Below are positions 1-21,770 of a stretch of 21,770 bases of DNA, piece by piece; within the stretch, counting starts at the first letter, position 1; every line of letters begins with the position of its first letter. The DNA comes from a virus. A program made the position numbers and the translations under genes. The stretch lies in UHGV virus genome UHGV-1845973; one strand, 5' to 3'. The notes under the pieces were generated by a model. That model was not told the origin of the DNA, ran no database searches, and was given only the letters and a program-made list of their open reading frames with translations.

Positions 1-12
1 GGACATACCTCG

Positions 13-969
13 TTAACCGATTGCTTTCAGGCCATGAACAAGAGCAAGTTGCGGGTCATCCGCCACGAAGAAACGGTCATCACGAATATTAACTTGCTCG
101 CGAATTGCATCTGCCACCAGCGGTGCGCCACCACCGATCACCATGACATGCGTATATCCTTTAAAGTCGCCAATCACATCAAGAACGCGGGTACGCAGAC
201 GGTCAATGCTTGCGGCAATGGCCTTTTTCACATCACCAATCGCTGATGGGTCATTGATATTGTCGTTCAGATAATCTTCATCGTGGCGGTTAATAATGAG
301 CTGATCAACATTGTAATTGGACGTTTCGGTATTGGCTCTGGCAAGTGCTTGCCTTACTTCCCTGGTAACCAGAGAGACGCCAAGATTCGAATCGCCAAAA
401 ACACGGGAAACTGCCGTCATTTGCCCGGCGACCATTGAAACATCAAGGGTAGTTCCACCCAAATCGACGATAAGAACAGAATGGGCAGGGTTCAGATTGT
501 CGCACAGGCCAATTCCTGCCGGAATAGACTCCGGTCGTACCGTAACTTTCTTAATCGTGAACACATTGCCTTTATTCAACGTGACGGGGCGCATAAGACT
601 GGATTTCTTGCGCTCGATGTTATCGAGATTGTATTGCGCGTCGTCGTCGTAAAACTCCGCCAGAGGCAGCGTGACCACAATTTCTACTTCCTGCGGCTCA
701 ATGCCACTTGTCAGCAGGGCATGGTGAACAGCCAGGACGTTAAGCGGGCTGTATTGCCATTCCACGTTATTCGTCGGCAGAACATCTGGCGAGATCAAAT
801 CATACGAATACTTTTCGTCGTCAATGACATAGTTAAACGGCTTGCCAGCACAAAATGTTGCTGACCATCCGCGCTTAAAGCTGTTAGGGCTGATGTGAGT
901 GCGAGTTTCCCCGTCGTGCTCCCACAGCATTTTGATATTGGTTGAACCATCATCGATAAAAATGCGCAT
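13..969 (-). CDS. parM: ParM/StbA-family actin-like plasmid segregation ATPase (type II partition)
   Basis: N-terminus MRIFIDDGSTNIK... and C-terminus ...LVHGLKAIG match the ParM family as I recall it (R1 ParM begins MLVFIDDGSTNIK). ATG at 969 is preferred over the GTG at 993 used by the ORF track because GGAG lies 7 nt upstream of it. Stop TAA at 15..13. Confidence 0.85.
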   Translation of the reverse strand: MRIFIDDGSTNIKMLWEHDGETRTHISPNSFKRGWSATFCAGKPFNYVIDDEKYSYDLISPDVLPTNNVEWQYSPLNVLAVHHALLTSGIEPQEVEIVVTLPLAEFYDDDAQYNLDNIERKKSSLMRPVTLNKGNVFTIKKVTVRPESIPAGIGLCDNLNPAHSVLIVDLGGTTLDVSMVAGQMTAVSRVFGDSNLGVSLVTREVRQALARANTETSNYNVDQLIINRHDEDYLNDNINDPSAIGDVKKAIAASIDRLRTRVLDVIGDFKGYTHVMVIGGGAPLVADAIREQVNIRDDRFFVADDPQLALVHGLKAIG

Positions 970-993
970 CTTCTTGCTCCACTTCTGAGACAC

Positions 994-1190
994 ATTTGAG
1001 AATCAAAATGCAATTTTAAAAGAGAAGCACCCAAAAATCCACACCAAAAGAGATAATAAAGAGTGATTATTGAGTTCATTTTGAGAATATCTTAATCACC
1101 CAATGAATGATGGTCTGACAGTGAGATTTATTTGAGGATGAATTGAGAATACAAAAATATTCCGAAATTTTACTCTCAGTTTGAATGACG
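994..1190. repeat. Candidate parC-like centromere/promoter region upstream of parM with TTGAGAAT-like repeats
   Basis: AT-rich intergenic region between divergent parM and the PAAR gene. TTGAGAAT at 996, 1081 and 1143; related 8-mers at 1070 (ttgagttc), 1121 (gtgagatt) and 1132 (ttgaggat). Two clusters show exact 11-bp spacing (1070/1081 and 1121/1132/1143), as in the 11-bp iterons of R1 parC. Confidence 0.4.
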
Positions 1191-1235
1191 AAATAACAAA
1201 GTGATGACAATAGGAGGATAACCAGGAGGTGAAGA

Positions 1236-1520
1236 ATGAGCGCAATAGCCACCAGCGACACCCTTTGTTCTGGTCACGGAGGATTTCCGCCGCGACTGGT
1301 AGCTGAAACTGTTCCCTGGTTCACCGTTAACGGTAAGCCAATTGTTGTAGATGGTGCCATGTTTCCCAGTCACACTGACGGTAACAGTGCACATCCAGGG
1401 GCAGCTGTATCGACGCGAGTATGGTTTTCGATAGGTGGAAAGGGAGTTGTCTGTGTAGGCGATCCGCTTTCTTGTGGTTCTGTTATCGCCAACGGCGAGG
1501 ATATTTTTCAGGTTGCATAA
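1236..1520 (+). CDS. PAAR-domain protein (spike-tip sharpening protein)
   Basis: 94 aa. Contains the three PAAR-type motifs: SDTLCSGHGG, FTVNGKPIVVDG and VGDPLSCGSVIANGEDIF. Strong RBS AGGAGG 7 nt upstream of the ATG. Confidence 0.7.
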   Translation: MSAIATSDTLCSGHGGFPPRLVAETVPWFTVNGKPIVVDGAMFPSHTDGNSAHPGAAVSTRVWFSIGGKGVVCVGDPLSCGSVIANGEDIFQVA

Positions 1521-2381: not shown

Positions 2382-2855
2382 ATGAACCTGAAGAGGATGG
2401 TTTTGAAAAAGATAATTTTGATTGTAATTGCGCTTTTAGCCATTTCTGGAATTTACCGAACAACGACGGCAGTTATCGAACACATCAGGTATGTCCGATC
2501 GCTTGAAGACTCAAAATCACAACTGGAAAGCACGAACAACACGCTTTCTACCGCATTACAGTTAAGTGAGAACGCTCGCTCAGCCATGCTGACCGAAAAC
2601 GAAAGAATTAAAGCACTGGAAAAGGAGTACCAGCGCAAAACAGCAGAACTGAATGCCAACCTAATCAAACAACGAGAGGAAAGCCAGAATGAAATCACTC
2701 GCCTTGAAAATGCGTTACGCCGTGCTGGGATTAACGATGTGCGTGTGCCTGATGACGTTATCAGGATGCAGCGGGAACGGGCAAAAGCCATCAACCAGCG
2801 TGCCAGTGAAAATTACCGTAGAAGCCACCAGCAAGCCGCAGGCAAATCTGATTGA
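2382..2855 (+). CDS. Rz-like i-spanin (type II inner-membrane protein with coiled-coil periplasmic domain)
   Basis: N-terminal basic stretch followed by one hydrophobic TM segment (IILIVIALLAISGIY), then a long charged helical region rich in E/R/K/Q/L. A lipoprotein gene is embedded in the +1 frame, which is the spanin hallmark. The alternative start at 2397 is not excluded. Confidence 0.6.
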   Translation: MNLKRMVLKKIILIVIALLAISGIYRTTTAVIEHIRYVRSLEDSKSQLESTNNTLSTALQLSENARSAMLTENERIKALEKEYQRKTAELNANLIKQREESQNEITRLENALRRAGINDVRVPDDVIRMQRERAKAINQRASENYRRSHQQAAGKSD

Positions 2856-11129: not shown

Positions 11130-11141
11130 AATGCTTTAATT

Positions 11142-11363
11142 ATGTGTGCTGTAGGGAAAGGTTTACGTTAAATGTGTGCTGCCGGGAAACCCCATTGCTC
11201 AAGATGTGTTGTAGAGGGAATGGTAATGGCAACATGTGTGCTGGAGGGGAATTTCGCATGTAAAGAGCGTCATTTATCCCTCCAGCACACATCTGAAATA
11301 AGCAATCCTCTGAAATTCCCTCCACCACACATCCAGACATGAAACTATCCCTTCAGCACACAT
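11142..11363. repeat. incA-like iteron array (7 P1-type RepA-binding iterons) downstream of repA
   Basis: Four copies in one orientation (ATGTGTGCTG[T/C/G]AGGGAAA-like at 11142, 11172, 11204 and 11234; the third is degenerate) and three in the opposite orientation (TCCCTCCAGCACACAT-like at 11277, 11317 and 11348). The core matches the P1 iteron consensus GATGTGTGCTGGAGGGAAA as I recall it. The last iteron overlaps the repA stop codon. Confidence 0.8.
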
Positions 11364-12224
11364 TTAATCTGTTGGTTTAAGTTTCGGATTCCGAGAGTGA
11401 ACGATAATGAAGTTTTCACGACCTTGCTTTTCAATGGTGCAATCGAGATAACCTATTGTTTTTAACTGGTCTATAGCTTTTTTTATCGTTCTGTTTTGCT
11501 CACTTACCGATGACATCAAGGCTAATCTTTCACGTATTCTGGCAAATGAAATAGGTATTGGACGTGCCGGGAGGCTTTCTATAAAGGTATATATGGCCTG
11601 GGCTGCTTCTTTTTTAGGTAAAGCGCGAAGTGCGTGTTGCTGTAGAAGCACCCGATAGTCTAGCTGGAAGATTTCCCATAACTTGGAATCAGCCTCCAGT
11701 TCAACGACATCTGTTTCAAAGTCAAAATATCCCGTTTTAAGCAGGCCAGTATTGTAGCTTCCACGAGCACTTTTCCCTCTTTTGAATGAGATGCCTTTGT
11801 TGCGTAACCGACCTAAAGAATCGTGGATCGTGTTTCTTAATTTCCCATCAAGTCGCTTAGATGGAAATCCGCACGCCTTTGCAAATTCTTGAAAAGAAAG
11901 GCGAATTGTATTCGATGATAAGCCATACTTGCTAAATGAGTAGATTACCCCAATCCAGACTTTGAAATCAGTATCCATGTCCAAGCGAGGGCCAGTGATC
12001 TTGATGTTGTCGTAGCCTTCTGCTTGAGCTATTTCCAATTTGGAAAAAACAGATGATGCATCTATCTCGTTGTTTTCACCCTGTTTTTTAGTTGGTTTAG
12101 GGACGAAAACACCAAGCCGCATAAGTGCGACAGGTTGAACAGTATTGTTCGAATTAACTGTTAATTCTTTAGCCTTGCTTTCAATGTCAGCATAAAGAAT
12201 ATCAGAGATAAATGACTTATCCAT
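11364..12224 (-). CDS. repA: RepA replication initiator, P1 / IncY-type iteron plasmid family
   Basis: 286 aa beginning MDKSFISDILYADIESKAKELTVNSN..., which I recognise as P1 RepA-like, and flanked on both sides by P1-type 19-bp iterons. ATG at 12224; the ORF track adds one upstream TTG codon. Confidence 0.9.
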   Translation of the reverse strand: MDKSFISDILYADIESKAKELTVNSNNTVQPVALMRLGVFVPKPTKKQGENNEIDASSVFSKLEIAQAEGYDNIKITGPRLDMDTDFKVWIGVIYSFSKYGLSSNTIRLSFQEFAKACGFPSKRLDGKLRNTIHDSLGRLRNKGISFKRGKSARGSYNTGLLKTGYFDFETDVVELEADSKLWEIFQLDYRVLLQQHALRALPKKEAAQAIYTFIESLPARPIPISFARIRERLALMSSVSEQNRTIKKAIDQLKTIGYLDCTIEKQGRENFIIVHSRNPKLKPTD

Positions 12225-12262
12225 CAATAAGTTACCGTCATGTTGTGAATAAAGTTTACGAC

Positions 12263-12495
12263 AGTGGATATCCGGCTTTTTTTCCCGTCAGCACACATCC
12301 TACATCCCGTCAGCACACATGTAAAACCCTCCAGCACACATATTTTTCCCGTCAGCACACATCGTTCTCCCTCCAGCACACATCTGAATAGTGGTTAAAG
12401 CCTTATGTGGCGCGGCCTGAAGAGCTACGGGATCTATTTGGTACTATATGGATCTAATCAGGATCTATATATTGGATCTATCCTGTGGATAAAAA
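12263..12495. other. oriR-like replication origin: iterons, GATC-heptamer cluster and DnaA box
   Basis: Perfect DnaA box TGTGGATAA at 12484..12492. Four GATC sites inside GGATCTA heptamers at 12431, 12451, 12462 and 12475. A degenerate DnaA-like box AGTGGATAT at 12263. This DnaA box / methylatable GATC repeats / 5 iterons / repA layout matches the P1 R origin as I recall it. Confidence 0.7.
12283..12385. repeat. incC-like origin iterons (5 direct repeats) covering the repA promoter region
   Basis: Five copies of CCC[G/T][T/C]CAGCACACAT at about 12283, 12305, 12326, 12348 and 12368, regularly spaced at ~21-22 bp and all in the same orientation, immediately upstream of repA. Confidence 0.85.
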
Positions 12496-12578
12496 AGAAG
12501 AATTACAAAGCTCCACCCAATTTCACACACTACCTATCCTCCAACGAATAAACAGACATCTGCTTATCGGAGGAATAC

Positions 12579-13414: not shown

Positions 13415-16400
13415 ATGGATATCAGCCCATTAGTGACGTTGAACAATTACCGCAATGGCGAGCACTCCATATGTCAAAAGCCCTGGAAGAAAAATACAAA
13501 GCTCAAGCCGGGAAACGTTGATCGCGCTGGTAAAAGAGAGGTTATTTTGAAAGAGAATAAAGACCGTATCGCAATAATTGACGCTATTCAGGAAGCGAGC
13601 ACAAACGAACTTAAAGCTCTTGCTGAGGTAAAAGACGCCATTCTTTCTGGGGCAAGCACCATAACTCAACAGGACGAAAGGCAAGGCAGAGTTAGCAACA
13701 GACTATCACGCAGGCGTAAAGAGTACGAGCAAAGTACATCTGATAGCGTTAGAGATGTCCAAACTAACCCATATAAAAAACGTCTCCCTGCTAAAAAGGA
13801 GAGGGCACCGATAAACCAAACCGTGGACCGCTCTATCGTTGCAACGAACACACCAGAAAGTGTTCGCTCCGTGCAATCACGTCAGACCATCCGAAAATCG
13901 GACGGTTTTATACCGGTAGCTGCTAATTCAGCCCCTCTTGAACCACAATCCCCCCAAAGTCTAAAAGGCCCGCTGCGGGATAGTAATGGACGTTTTGTAT
14001 CCCAAAAAAGCAATGAGGATGTAGCCAGAAAAAAAGAATTGCAGAACGCACGTAAAGCCGACGCAAAATTACAAGCTGGCTTTCTCAGAAAGCTAGGTTC
14101 CATTATGGGGGTAGATGGCAATCGGTCTTCCAGTGAAGAGTCTTTAACAAATGCAGCTGGTGTCGGTGCTGGTGGGCCGTTCTGGATGGCGGCTCGTGGC
14201 ATGTACGACATAACTAAAGAGATCACAGGTAAAGCAGAATCTCTTAAAGAATGGGTAGAAAAGGGGAAAAAAGAAACATCAACCTCGAAAGCAATATCAC
14301 CAGTAATTACTTATCCGGCGGCGGTGAATTCTCAAAAAGCAACATCTGCAAAAGCGTTCAATAACGCTGTTGAGACAAAATCCGCACAAGCAGTAGAAGA
14401 GCAAACCAAAATCCTTCAGACCAATGACAACAAAATAATTGATGGTCTGGAAAATGTTTCTGACGAGATAGTTAAGCTTCGGAAATCAGTGTCTTCTGGA
14501 AATAAGTTCGGCTTAAGTGATCTCTGGAAAAATCGAGCAAGCAGAAGAAATAAAATCAATATTGGTGATCAGACGGGAAAAAATAAACGGAACAAATCGA
14601 AAAGGAAAGGACGCAATCTTGGGAAAAAAGCACTCTCCGCTGGCGAAAAAGTTGCTGCCGGTAGCGCTGCGGCTGGCACTGGTGTCGGAGCAGCAAAAGT
14701 AGTTAAAAATAAGATCAGCAAACCCAAAGATGTAAGCACTATCAGCGATACATCAAAGGGGATTGCAAAGGAAACAAAAAATACTGCTAAGGCCGTGAAG
14801 TCAGCTGGTGTTGTGGCTGAAGATGCCACCATTAAAACCGGCGAAGCCATTGCAAAGAAAAAAACTGAATCTGTAGCCCTCAAAAGTGCTGCAAAAATAG
14901 GTGTTAAATCAGCAGCATCCACAGCGGCAAGAGCGGTCCCTATCATCGGTTCGCTGGCAATGGCTGGATATGACGCCATAGATGGTTACACAGATACAGA
15001 GGCGCAAAAGGCAGCCTTTGGATTAAGTGACGATAATGCTGTATCCGAACAGCAAAAAACGGCTTACGCAACAGCTAATGTGCTCGATATGGGGGGCTTG
15101 GTGTCGGGCGCAACGAACTTGATAGGGAAAGGAATTTCTGCGCTAGGATTTGAAAGAGCAGGTGAAAAACTTCAGAATTTTGATACCGGAGATATTGCTC
15201 GTGGTGTTAACGGCGCGGTAGATATCACCAAATCTGTTTTTGGTAGCCTTAAGGATACATTTTTATCCACTGATGAAAACACGAAACAAGTAAAAAAAGC
15301 TGTTGAAGACGGCACCAAAAAAACTGTCGATGCGATTCATTCTCTAGGTGAACAATTACAAGGTGGGCGTAATGGCGAGGATGGAGTTGGTGAGCACGGG
15401 TATACTTCTCCAACTGAATTTAGTGCACCTGCCAACAACACCATTGCAGCGGATCTGAATATTGGCGGCAGCAACGCTAAAAACCGCAATTACCGAAATA
15501 ATAATCTCGGCAATCTTGTTTTTGCCAACCAGGAAGGGGCGACGCTGGAATCGCCAAATGCAAAAGGTGAACAACGTTTTGCGCGATTTAACACACCTGA
15601 AGAAGGGATCAGGGCACTGGCAAACCAGGTTTCCAGCTATTACAACGGCACCAGTGCCGCAGCGGGATATCAGAAGTTACAGACGGTATCCAGCATCATT
15701 TCAAAATGGGCACCGCCAAATGAGAACAATACTAACCAATATATTGATAACGTCAGTAAATATCTTGGTGTATCGCCTAATGAAAAAATAGATGTCAGCA
15801 AACCAGAGGTTATGACGCAATTAGTTCGTGCAATTGCGACGAAAGAAGGCGGAAATCCGGCAGTTAATAATGAGTTCATTAAGAACGCACTTGGAGCATT
15901 TAACACAAACACTGGTCGATGGGAGGGACAATTCTCTGACGAAACATTGGCGCGGATTAATAAAATTCAGAAAGAAAATGGTGGTCAGCTAATTGCCCGC
16001 GATTCGCAATATAGTGTTGGTCGCAAGGTAAAATATGCTAATGGAAAATCTCCAGCTCAACCAGTTTTGAATGCCGTTCCGACAGCAACACAACAGCCAA
16101 TTGAGGTTGCACAACATGCCCAGGCAGTCAAAAAGCCACAAAAAACAGGTAACCAACCACAACCGATTAATCCAGAGAACGCTGATGTTAATACCGGCTC
16201 TCCATCGAGTTTGCTTGAGCGGTTAATCACAATAAATGAAAGCGGAATCAGTGGTGCAAGTAATTTATTTGGCGGCGCGGCTACCAGCCTTGCTGGAACA
16301 AGTCTGGACCTGGTAAAGGATTTTGCGTTGGCTACTTCGTTTGGTTCTATATCTTCGCTTTCCGAAAAAGCGAAAGGAATGGATCAGGCTCTTACTGAAA

Positions 16401-17359
16401 AGATATCCGGCTTAACCGGTAAATCTTTTGGATTTAAAATAGCTTCTCAAGTGGCTGATATCGCAACAGCCATACAACAAAAACGCACTGTTAATCACGA
16501 TACAGAAATCATTGATCTACTTCCGGGAGATCAAGTATCCCCTTCTACTCCGAAAACCCCACAGCAGGAGCAGGCTCTAGCAATCAGCCAGGCTATGGAG
16601 GGCTTTTCATCTGCAGCGCCAGCACCGAAAACCCCACAGCAGGAGCAGGCTCTAGCAATCAACCAGGCTATGGCGGGAGCTGCGCCAGTAGTTACCTCTG
16701 GAAAACGAACTATCACGGCACCAAGTGATGTGCAGATTTATGACAACGGCTACAAGGTGGTTACAGGTGAGGATAAGAGCTTCTTTGGTTCGCTATTTGA
16801 TTCCACGGTGTCAGGGCTTAAACAGACAGGAACCGCAGTAATTCCTGCCGTTGGCGATAACCTTTCACGACTTGTTGGGGGGATTGATAGTACAGGGATA
16901 TTGAACGATCTTGTAATGCAGTCTACTGGGCAGAATAGTGCGATTGCGCGAGCTATTAGCCCATTAACAAGAAATGTTGGAGACTGGCTGAATGGGGGGA
17001 TTCAACAAACCGCTAATAGCATTAGGGGAATAGCAACTGGTGCCAATAACGCCATATTTGGCTCTGCTTCAGCTGTGCAAGAACCTTTTCTTGCTATGCC
17101 GCCACAACTCCCTACTGTAACCGATCTCGCACGAAGCGGAATAAGACAACCATTAACTACTGACACTATAAATAACGATCCTGCTATGTTGAAGGCGCTG
17201 GATAACATCTGCTCTATCCTGAACGATCTGCTGAATGTGAACAAGAACAATACAAAAGGCGATCCGGATAATGTTGTCAAAACATCGCAGCCGCAGCCGC
17301 GACCACGTGCGAGCACAACTATTAATGACCAGTCGCTGGATGCTCTGCTTGAGGATTAA
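13415..17359 (+). CDS. Tail tape-measure protein with an embedded globular domain
   Basis: 1314 aa. Long Ala/Lys/Gly-rich low-complexity helical regions, central hydrophobic Gly-rich segments, and a position between tail genes and baseplate genes. A globular segment (about nt 15480..15900) differs from the rest. Confidence 0.8.
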   Translation: MDISPLVTLNNYRNGEHSICQKPWKKNTKLKPGNVDRAGKREVILKENKDRIAIIDAIQEASTNELKALAEVKDAILSGASTITQQDERQGRVSNRLSRRRKEYEQSTSDSVRDVQTNPYKKRLPAKKERAPINQTVDRSIVATNTPESVRSVQSRQTIRKSDGFIPVAANSAPLEPQSPQSLKGPLRDSNGRFVSQKSNEDVARKKELQNARKADAKLQAGFLRKLGSIMGVDGNRSSSEESLTNAAGVGAGGPFWMAARGMYDITKEITGKAESLKEWVEKGKKETSTSKAISPVITYPAAVNSQKATSAKAFNNAVETKSAQAVEEQTKILQTNDNKIIDGLENVSDEIVKLRKSVSSGNKFGLSDLWKNRASRRNKINIGDQTGKNKRNKSKRKGRNLGKKALSAGEKVAAGSAAAGTGVGAAKVVKNKISKPKDVSTISDTSKGIAKETKNTAKAVKSAGVVAEDATIKTGEAIAKKKTESVALKSAAKIGVKSAASTAARAVPIIGSLAMAGYDAIDGYTDTEAQKAAFGLSDDNAVSEQQKTAYATANVLDMGGLVSGATNLIGKGISALGFERAGEKLQNFDTGDIARGVNGAVDITKSVFGSLKDTFLSTDENTKQVKKAVEDGTKKTVDAIHSLGEQLQGGRNGEDGVGEHGYTSPTEFSAPANNTIAADLNIGGSNAKNRNYRNNNLGNLVFANQEGATLESPNAKGEQRFARFNTPEEGIRALANQVSSYYNGTSAAAGYQKLQTVSSIISKWAPPNENNTNQYIDNVSKYLGVSPNEKIDVSKPEVMTQLVRAIATKEGGNPAVNNEFIKNALGAFNTNTGRWEGQFSDETLARINKIQKENGGQLIARDSQYSVGRKVKYANGKSPAQPVLNAVPTATQQPIEVAQHAQAVKKPQKTGNQPQPINPENADVNTGSPSSLLERLITINESGISGASNLFGGAATSLAGTSLDLVKDFALATSFGSISSLSEKAKGMDQALTEKISGLTGKSFGFKIASQVADIATAIQQKRTVNHDTEIIDLLPGDQVSPSTPKTPQQEQALAISQAMEGFSSAAPAPKTPQQEQALAINQAMAGAAPVVTSGKRTITAPSDVQIYDNGYKVVTGEDKSFFGSLFDSTVSGLKQTGTAVIPAVGDNLSRLVGGIDSTGILNDLVMQSTGQNSAIARAISPLTRNVGDWLNGGIQQTANSIRGIATGANNAIFGSASAVQEPFLAMPPQLPTVTDLARSGIRQPLTTDTINNDPAMLKALDNICSILNDLLNVNKNNTKGDPDNVVKTSQPQPRPRASTTINDQSLDALLED
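16550..16680 (+). repeat. Tandem ~75-bp duplication inside the tape-measure gene
   Basis: CCGAAAACCCCACAGCAGGAGCAGGCTCTAGCAATCA[G/A]CCAGGCTATGG[A/C]GGG occurs at 16550 and again at 16625 with two mismatches (protein repeat KTPQQEQALAI[S/N]QAM[E/A]G). Confidence 0.75.
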
Positions 17360-20565: not shown

Positions 20566-21770
20566 ATGGGGGCTGATAAAACGAACAACATAATGACACT
20601 ATCCTCTGGTGTCTCACAGTCGTTGCTTGCTGATGTTCAATATTTCGAACTCTATAGTAGTCTGGCTCTTAACAGAAAACTAAAAAATATTGTTTTGCCT
20701 GGCTTTTACTGTGGATTTGAACCGGTTCCCGGCACAGGGTTGAGTGTCCGCATAACTTCTGAAAACTCCGAAGGTAAAGGGGCTGCTTCAGTAGATGTAA
20801 ATAATGTTCAGATATCCGTTCAGCAAATAGAAGATGTGACTGTCTCGGTAAAGGCAGGGGCTACCAACATTATTGTGCTGGAAGCCAATTTTGAACATGG
20901 TGTAAAAACGACACAGGTAGATAGCGCATCTTCTGTCAGTGCTGCAAGAATTTACGCGCGTACGGACAATACTATTGGGCAGAATCAAATTGAATTATGT
21001 CGAGTTATCGTGCCTAGCGGCGCAACGGCTGTGACTAAAGAAATGATTGTGCTTAAATACCGGGTTAACCGTGCTGTTGGTGTCGAATTCTCTAATGAAA
21101 TAAGCAGTACAGAAGAAAGAAAAGCGGCTACACCGAAAGCTGTCAAGGCTGCATATGACCTGGCTAACGGGAAGTATACAGCCCAGGATGCAACCACGAC
21201 ACAAAAAGGGATAGTTCAGCTCAGTAGCGACACCAACAGCACTTCTGAAACATTAGCTGCAACTCCAAAAGCGGTTAAAGCTGCATACGATCTAGCAGCC
21301 GGAAAGGCACCATCCAGTCATACACATCCCTGGAATCAGATCACTGGTGTGCCAACAGCTTCATTGACAGCGAAAGGCATCACTCAGCTCAGTAGTGCCA
21401 CTAACAGCACGTCTGAAGTGCTGGCCGCTACACCGAAAGCTGTCAAGGCTGCATATGACCTGGCTAACGGGAAGTACACAGCCCAGGATGCAACCACGAC
21501 ACAAAAAGGGATAGTTCAGCTCAGTAGCGACACCAACAGCACTTCTGAAACATTAGCTGCAACTCCAAAAGCGGTTAAAGCTGCATACGATCTAGCAGCC
21601 GGAAAGGCACCATCCAGTCATACACATCCCTGGAATCAGATCACTGGTGTGCCAACAGCTTCATTGACAGCGAAAGGCATCACTCAGCTCAGTAGTGCCA
21701 CTAACAGCACGTCTGAAGTGCTGGCCGCTACACCGAAAGCTGTCAAGGCTGCATATGACCTGGCTAACGG
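20566..21770 (+). CDS. Tail fibre protein (P1 S / P2 H-type, PF03406-type repeats), 3-prime partial
   Basis: ATG at 20566 with RBS GAGGG 6 nt upstream; the ORF is open to the window end. Repeated motifs SSxTNSTSExLAATPKAVKAAYDLAxGK are the hallmark of the phage tail fibre repeat. Confidence 0.8.
   Translation, partial: MGADKTNNIMTLSSGVSQSLLADVQYFELYSSLALNRKLKNIVLPGFYCGFEPVPGTGLSVRITSENSEGKGAASVDVNNVQISVQQIEDVTVSVKAGATNIIVLEANFEHGVKTTQVDSASSVSAARIYARTDNTIGQNQIELCRVIVPSGATAVTKEMIVLKYRVNRAVGVEFSNEISSTEERKAATPKAVKAAYDLANGKYTAQDATTTQKGIVQLSSDTNSTSETLAATPKAVKAAYDLAAGKAPSSHTHPWNQITGVPTASLTAKGITQLSSATNSTSEVLAATPKAVKAAYDLANGKYTAQDATTTQKGIVQLSSDTNSTSETLAATPKAVKAAYDLAAGKAPSSHTHPWNQITGVPTASLTAKGITQLSSATNSTSEVLAATPKAVKAAYDLAN
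21127..21770 (+). repeat. Near-identical 300-bp tandem repeat (at least 2.1 copies) inside the tail fibre gene
   Basis: 21127..21426 is repeated at 21427..21726 with a single mismatch (21177 T versus 21477 C). A third copy begins at 21727 and is cut by the window end. Each 300-bp unit encodes 100 aa and itself contains diverged copies of the fibre repeat motif. Confidence 0.9.

Follow-up and report, generated by a model that had tools for sequence, protein, structure and literature searches.

The 21,770-nt stretch of viral DNA analysed here (the window) begins with a minus-strand locus that holds a complete parM gene, the first codons of its adaptor gene parR and, upstream of parM, an array of phased direct repeats with the appearance of a parC centromere. 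The features of this locus are as follows:

1..6, minus strand: extreme 5′ end of parR, the adaptor gene, which leaves the window (in-frame ATG at 6..4; relatives; PF10784, 3.3e-11)
8..11, minus strand: parR ribosome-binding site GAGG, read directly
13..969, minus strand: parM, actin-like segregation ATPase of 318 aa (Pfam, PDB R1 ParM, motif alignment)
977..980, minus strand: parM ribosome-binding site GGAG, read directly and invariant in relatives
985..1006, plus strand: putative parC iteron pair A (CTGAGACACAT, TTGAGAATCAA), units at 985 and 996, 20 and 31 nt 5′ of the parM ATG
1013..1041, minus strand: candidate par promoter, located by eye, with −10 TAAAAT at 1018..1013, a 17-nt spacer and −35 TGGATT at 1041..1036
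1048..1091, plus strand: putative cluster B of parC, with four iterons of 11 bp (first bases 1048, 1059, 1070 and 1081)
1092..1120, no strand: 29-bp spacer between clusters B and C, conserved in length and variable in sequence
1121..1153, plus strand: putative cluster C of parC, with three iterons of 11 bp (first bases 1121, 1132 and 1143)

The parM and parR genes and the upstream repeats

The parM gene is intact, from its ATG at 969..967 to a TAA stop at 15..13 of the minus strand, and a gene survey with Pfam bore out the original prediction that it is the sole partition gene within the window. Its product matches the StbA_N (1.5e-68) and ParM C-terminal (3.3e-55) domains of Pfam and aligns over its full length with the solved structures of R1 ParM (PDB 4a62/1mwk; E values from 5e-110 to about 1e-110). 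Identity to the R100/R1 protein reaches 53%, with the phosphate-binding motifs DDGSTN, DLGGTT and IGGGA aligned. The assignment to the type II ATPases made beforehand is upheld by this family search and, judged by its domains and motifs, the protein is a bona fide R1-family ParM. NCBIfam offers no above-threshold name for ParM, ParR or the RepA protein described below, and the Pfam and PDB matches are the decisive ones. ParM homologues of about 47% identity also occur in Escherichia and Citrobacter phages of 31-40 kb (the P88 group: P88, 520873, Xuanwuvirus P884B11 and others), which indicates that parM genes are not confined to P1-family phage-plasmids.

At the left edge, the minus strand reads TAA CGAGGT ATG TCC up to the end of the window and ATG TCT CAG beyond it, so that two in-frame ATGs are available to parR. 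The one at 6..4 lies 1 nt past the GAGG motif, and the one just outside position 1 lies 7 nt past it. The latter is the start annotated in phage D6 and in most plasmids (112 aa), whereas one record uses the upstream ATG (114 aa). The start codon proposed originally at 6..4 is therefore real and in frame, but the likelier start, from the sequence and its annotated relatives, would be 6 nt farther along, outside the window; with either codon, parR starts at the edge of the window. The expectation that a leftward extension would reveal a ParR gene was confirmed in eight of eight related records, one of them 99.97% identical to the window, which itself holds the first parR codons only: in all of them a ParR/StbB reading frame of 112-126 aa directly follows parM, 12 nt past its stop. 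These proteins belong to the family PF10784 (Plasmid_stab_B; 3e-11 to 1e-14 across the relatives), match pB171 ParR (PDB 2JD3, E 1.6e-6) as the only solved structure and show 31% identity to R1 ParR. Their N-terminal strand-helix region and a C-terminal tail (LADSLPD) are the parts conserved across lineages. In pB2C_96, parR (112 aa) lies at 44757..45095.

Upstream of parM, nine direct repeats lie on one strand in 11-bp phase, grouped in clusters of two, four and three units. Five 8-mers listed in the original prediction are exact (TTGAGTTC at 1070, TTGAGAAT at 1081, GTGAGATT at 1121, TTGAGGAT at 1132 and TTGAGAAT again at 1143), but its division of the array into two clusters was incomplete, with four iterons missed (985/996 and 1048/1059). 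The core of the iterons is TGAG; if the base before GAG may be A or T, two AGAG units are gained, at 1048 and 1059, which keep the register of those at 1070 and 1081. The two AGAG units are weaker, and D6 has lost them. The region is AT-rich, as had been stated, with 29-30% GC at 1001..1200 versus about 50% in the flanks, and the likeness to R1 parC that had been pointed out stands, the upstream repeats being both 11-bp phased and clustered.

Clusters B and A are 41 bp apart, and the candidate par promoter is situated between them. It agrees with the consensus at 8 of 12 positions, and most positions of its hexamers fall in invariant alignment columns. On the other hand, a sigma-70 scan of 940..1260 returned one hit, TTAAGA-18-AATAAT at 1095..1066, which overlaps cluster B, a number equal to chance expectation. 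By analogy with R1, the position of the TAAAAT/TGGATT pair would mirror that of the R1 promoter between its iteron sets, and pair A would then lie just past the transcription start.

The P1-type replicon and the D6-like background

A P1-type repA replicon had been predicted about 10 kb from the partition gene, and the following features are found there:

11141..11364, both orientations: incA-like array of P1-type 19-bp RepA iterons, 3′ of repA
11364..12224, minus strand: repA, P1-type replication initiator of 286 aa (ATG at 12224; Pfam Rep3_N match)
12281..12500, minus strand: oriR-like origin, with five incC-type 19-bp iterons at 12281..12384, a GATC cluster and a DnaA box (TTATCCACA) at about 12485..12493

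The RepA protein shows 83.7% identity to P1 and P7 RepA over 99% of its length. Its incA-like array comprises six or more iterons, six of which, divided equally between the strands, differ from the P1 consensus at no more than 4 positions; both orientations occur, as in P1 incA, while iteron spacing and layout in the oriR-like origin are those of the annotated P1 oriR/incC, with a repeated AGATCC. In total, eleven 19-bp sites are found at this threshold, and they have in common with P1 the core ATGTGTGCTG-N2-GGGA. On these sequence features, the replicon at 11141..12500 is truly P1-type, as had been proposed. Like the maintenance region of P1 (oriR-repA-incA-parA-parB-parS), it combines RepA, five incC iterons, a bidirectional incA, the DnaA box and the GATC cluster. 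In P1, however, parA, parB and parS follow incA in a module located between gene 23 and upfA, whereas in the window no such genes follow incA and tail genes flank the cassette, which is inserted between pmgB and tub with incA abutting tub. P1 ParA (398 aa) and ParB were also used as tblastn queries on the window and on the complete sequences of pB2C_96 (the nearest complete replicon) and D6, with nothing but noise as the result (E ≥ 0.35). The original view of a P1-type RepA without the P1 ParABS system, and with ParMRC instead, is consequently correct.

The sequence relatives place this combination within a known group of elements. The whole window is 99.97% identical to the E. coli plasmid pB2C_96 (NZ_CP035876.1, 44756 to 22987) and, outside the rep cassette, 96-98% identical to phage D6. 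Its first 1,300 bases show 96.3% identity to D6 (MF356679), with ParM proteins 99.1% identical, and match about 120 E. coli, Salmonella and Shigella plasmids, non-mobilizable and some 90-97 kb in size, at up to 99.6% identity. Among 5,426 complete E. coli genomes, the par locus is carried by plasmids in 101, always as a single copy per genome and never on the chromosome. The remaining genes of the window are those of a P1-like virion (upfC, upfB, 23, 22, 21, pmgG, bplB, pmgC, tub, pmgB, sit, pmgA, bplA, 16, R and S), and the par cassette is positioned between upfC and dmt.

This arrangement of ParMRC with a P1-type RepA replicon, correctly read from the window, has already been annotated and described in the D6-like group. 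The GenBank record of D6 labels orf58 and orf59 as "StbA type" and "StbB type plasmid stability protein", and a study of pYU39_89 gave its partition system as cop, parA, stbB and parM. The StbA/StbB locus of D6 and those of pYU39_89 and pB2C_96 are the same locus, with the common synteny upfB-upfC followed by parM-parR-ParA-orf61-glnS-dmt. A survey of phage-plasmids reported partition and replication genes as co-localised in the P1 subfamily and, in the D6-like elements (P1-g2), as "separated by 14 persistent genes"; the window shows the D6-like order, in which a block of structural genes keeps the two apart. The mosaic maintenance module proposed originally does exist, but as a layout already known from D6-like phage-plasmids. 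As a separate observation, D6-like elements have a full-length glutaminyl-tRNA synthetase gene, glnS (584..2245 of L008, the pB2C_96 sequence), with the partition genes on one side of it and dmt on the other; it is already annotated in D6.

The window differs from D6 in its replicon. The alignment of the two breaks exactly at 11157..12522: in D6 and most D6-like plasmids an unrelated Rep occupies the site between pmgB and tub, the D6 protein (orf42) having no significant similarity to the RepA of the window, and the P1-type cassette is found there in only about 9 of 117 flank-matching D6-like plasmids of PLSDB (five full matches and four split by the record origin). The relatives are typed in PLSDB as rep_cluster_2221, 1704 or 2164. 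This polymorphism of the rep cassette is a modest new detail. From the common iteron core only, an IncY-type incompatibility with P1 is predicted, by which a minority of D6-like prophages would be incompatible with P1 through incA/incC and the others compatible, a matter that bears on the co-residence of resistance-carrying phage-plasmids in E. coli and Salmonella.

Two further observations concern the tail genes. A 300-bp tandem repeat spans 21124..21770, with 99.4% self-identity at a 300-bp offset, within a tail-fibre gene that leaves the right end of the window, and pB2C_96 contains several further copies. The reading frame of a Sit-like tail transglycosylase (13415..17359, 1314 aa, compared with 1260 aa in D6) includes a stretch of about 400 bp, at 16443..16844, that does not align with D6.

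Probable partition function of the cassette and its alternatives

ParM, ParR and phased upstream iterons, the components by which a type II ParMRC system is recognised at the sequence level, are all present at this locus. The most probable reading, to which we give a probability of about 0.9, is that parC-parM-parR constitutes the type II (actin-like) partition cassette of a D6-like phage-plasmid of the P1 family.

The alternative that survives best starts from a second gene pair outside the window. In pB2C_96, a type Ib ParA-like ATPase of 213 aa and an overlapping protein of 95 aa are encoded on the minus strand (2514..3435 of L008), about 290 bp past parR and behind a terminator-like hairpin with a T-run; the same pair occurs in D6 and in four other variants. 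It may represent a second partition system, of type Ib, in tandem with parMRC, so that the partition of the replicon may not depend on parMRC alone. Carried further, the argument would make the ParA pair the working system and parMRC redundant, auxiliary or devoted to another role, such as positioning during lytic growth. The ParA does match the family NF041546 (ParA_partition, 8.5e-48) and ParF of TP228 (PDB, 1e-18), and tandem systems recall the double par locus of pB171; its score, however, is 162.6 bits, whereas NCBIfam sets the cutoff at 180. Neither Pfam nor the PDB yields a match to the 95-aa partner even at E = 10, and its ribbon-helix-helix character is a reading of the sequence only. 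A search for repeats upstream of the ParA gene gave short two-copy matches, with no convincing second centromere or clear array. Moreover, an Enterobacter relative (L007) keeps parMR and lacks the ParA pair, and different lineages conserve parM, parR and parC in intact form. The displacement of parMRC by the ParA pair is for these reasons improbable, although it is the strongest of the competing explanations.

The reading of the upstream repeats as a centromere was weighed against a second alternative, in which they would serve as operator sites, bound by a phage regulator or belonging to the divergent upfC-upfB operon. The intergenic region is indeed common to parM and the divergent PAAR gene upfC, at 1236, and the equivalent intergenic region of P1 holds a C1 operator. 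Against this, all the repeats are parM-proximal (985..1153), with none in the 80 bp next to upfC, and their architecture of clustered 11-bp direct repeats matches parC; an operator array is accordingly very unlikely. C1-repressor operators in particular were rejected as the identity of the repeats, as no site with the P1 operator consensus exists in the window with 3 mismatches allowed.

The upfC side of the region shows features of its own. Upstream of this gene, at 1188..1224, is a conserved block (TTTGAATGACGAAATAACAAAGTGATGACAAT) that includes AAGTGA, the letters with which the −22 box of LP23 (AAGTGACTT), an annotated late promoter of P1, begins; the block may serve upfC-upfB as a late promoter. 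Also considered upstream of upfC, and discarded, was a recurrent late-promoter box, AACAAAGTGA: it is not enriched in the window, and only AAGTGA is common to it and the LP23 −22 box.

Comparison among relatives supports selection on the phased core of what would be the parC repeats. Six variants can be aligned, with intergenic identities of 75-100%; in them, 21 of the 22 positions of pair A are invariant, and its core positions are kept even in two plasmids that cannot be aligned, L006 from E. coli and L007 from Enterobacter. Neither G of the core varies in any unit of clusters B and C, while at repeat positions 8-9 only 0-14% of the units show no variation. Of five variants in which cluster B was compared, three (the window, p1_000837 and W444) maintain its four cores in register; from the other two, D6 and pHX138, one or both distal (AGAG) units have been lost. 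The step from the last core of cluster C to the first core of cluster B stays at 40-41 bp in six lineages, despite differing spacer sequences. In L006 and L007 the upstream DNA becomes unalignable past the first 55-87 nt of the query, but both still carry 3+3 units at 11-bp steps, with the related cores AGAGAC and TGAGA, and L006 also retains the 40-bp step between clusters. Finally, the plasmid of E. coli W444 (L004, region 2521..2812) has one additional exact 11-bp iteron (TGAGAACAATT) in cluster C, which would represent a copy-number polymorphism of the presumed centromere.

Within 970..1235, TGAG occurs 7 times against about 1 expected, with 4 pairs at exactly 11-bp spacing and none at other spacings of 5-21 bp, and pairs of this kind are absent from the rest of the 21.8-kb window on either strand. 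The last alternative, that such repeats arose by chance in intergenic DNA that is AT-rich and of low complexity, could appeal to the low GC content and to the full 8-mer, which with 2 mismatches is not enriched window-wide, but it is refuted by 20,000 composition-matched shuffles, none of which reaches the observed number of 11-bp pairs, by the conservation of phase and core where the surrounding sequence is not conserved, and by the gain of a whole 11-bp unit in one variant.

With the repeats regarded as parC, the main use of these data is a correct annotation, in which a D6-like plasmid prophage would be segregated by an actin-like ParMRC system and not by the ParABS of P1. The presumed centromere is mapped to base level (985..1153) and could be used in incompatibility or stability experiments. 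This base-level map, the tandem ParA pair and the polymorphism of the rep cassette are useful annotation details, not discoveries, and the current understanding of partition systems is unchanged by these results.

A wider and rather speculative proposal would join the two halves of the mosaic: D6-like elements could have a fixed tandem double par region, formed by a ParMRC with an unusual three-cluster parC, whose pair A abuts the ribosome-binding site, followed by the ParA and 95-aa genes, together with swaps between P1/IncY-type and D6-type replicons at one site among the tail genes. If both par systems were active and specialised, and if the swapping of replicons altered incompatibility with P1 while par specificity stayed constant, the lineage would offer a natural experiment and illustrate the uncoupling of replication-based and partition-based incompatibility in a phage.

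Proposed mechanism and comparison with known systems

Following the R1 and pB171 paradigm, segregation by this cassette would start with the cooperative binding of ParR dimers to the iterons through their N-terminal ribbon-helix-helix, which would wrap parC into a ring or a helix-like segrosome. The resulting ParR-parC complex would capture and stabilise the growing ends of dynamically unstable ParM-ATP filaments. Insertional polymerisation between two of these complexes would finally push sister plasmid prophages to opposite cell halves. The binding of ParR to the iterons would also auto-repress parMR, as expected from iterons that flank or overlap the par promoter.

The closest functional model is the ParMRC system of R1/R100, with which the locus has in common the gene order parC-parM-parR, the identities of ParM and ParR given above (53% and 31%) and the use of 11-bp direct repeats in clusters with promoter-sized gaps that reach the ribosome-binding site. 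In R1, the promoter core of parC spans 39 bp and has a set of five 11-bp direct repeats on either side, a layout visible in R100 DNA; ParR binds there at about one dimer to each iteron, and the promoter is thereby repressed. The sequence of the iterons is, however, unrelated, with a T/A-GAG-A core here (ATTCTCAA in the parM sense) and an A/C-rich AACCC in R1. The layout also differs, with clusters of 2+4+3 units separated by 41 and 29 bp in the window and of 5+5 units separated by 39 bp in R1, as does the host replicon, a phage-plasmid in one case and an IncFII conjugative plasmid in the other. As for the neighbouring ParA pair, there is a parallel in pB171, where type II and type Ib par systems are found side by side. 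The two par loci of pB171 are divergent and have a common centromere region, whereas the two gene pairs of the D6-like elements are in tandem and co-oriented, with the terminator-like hairpin between them.
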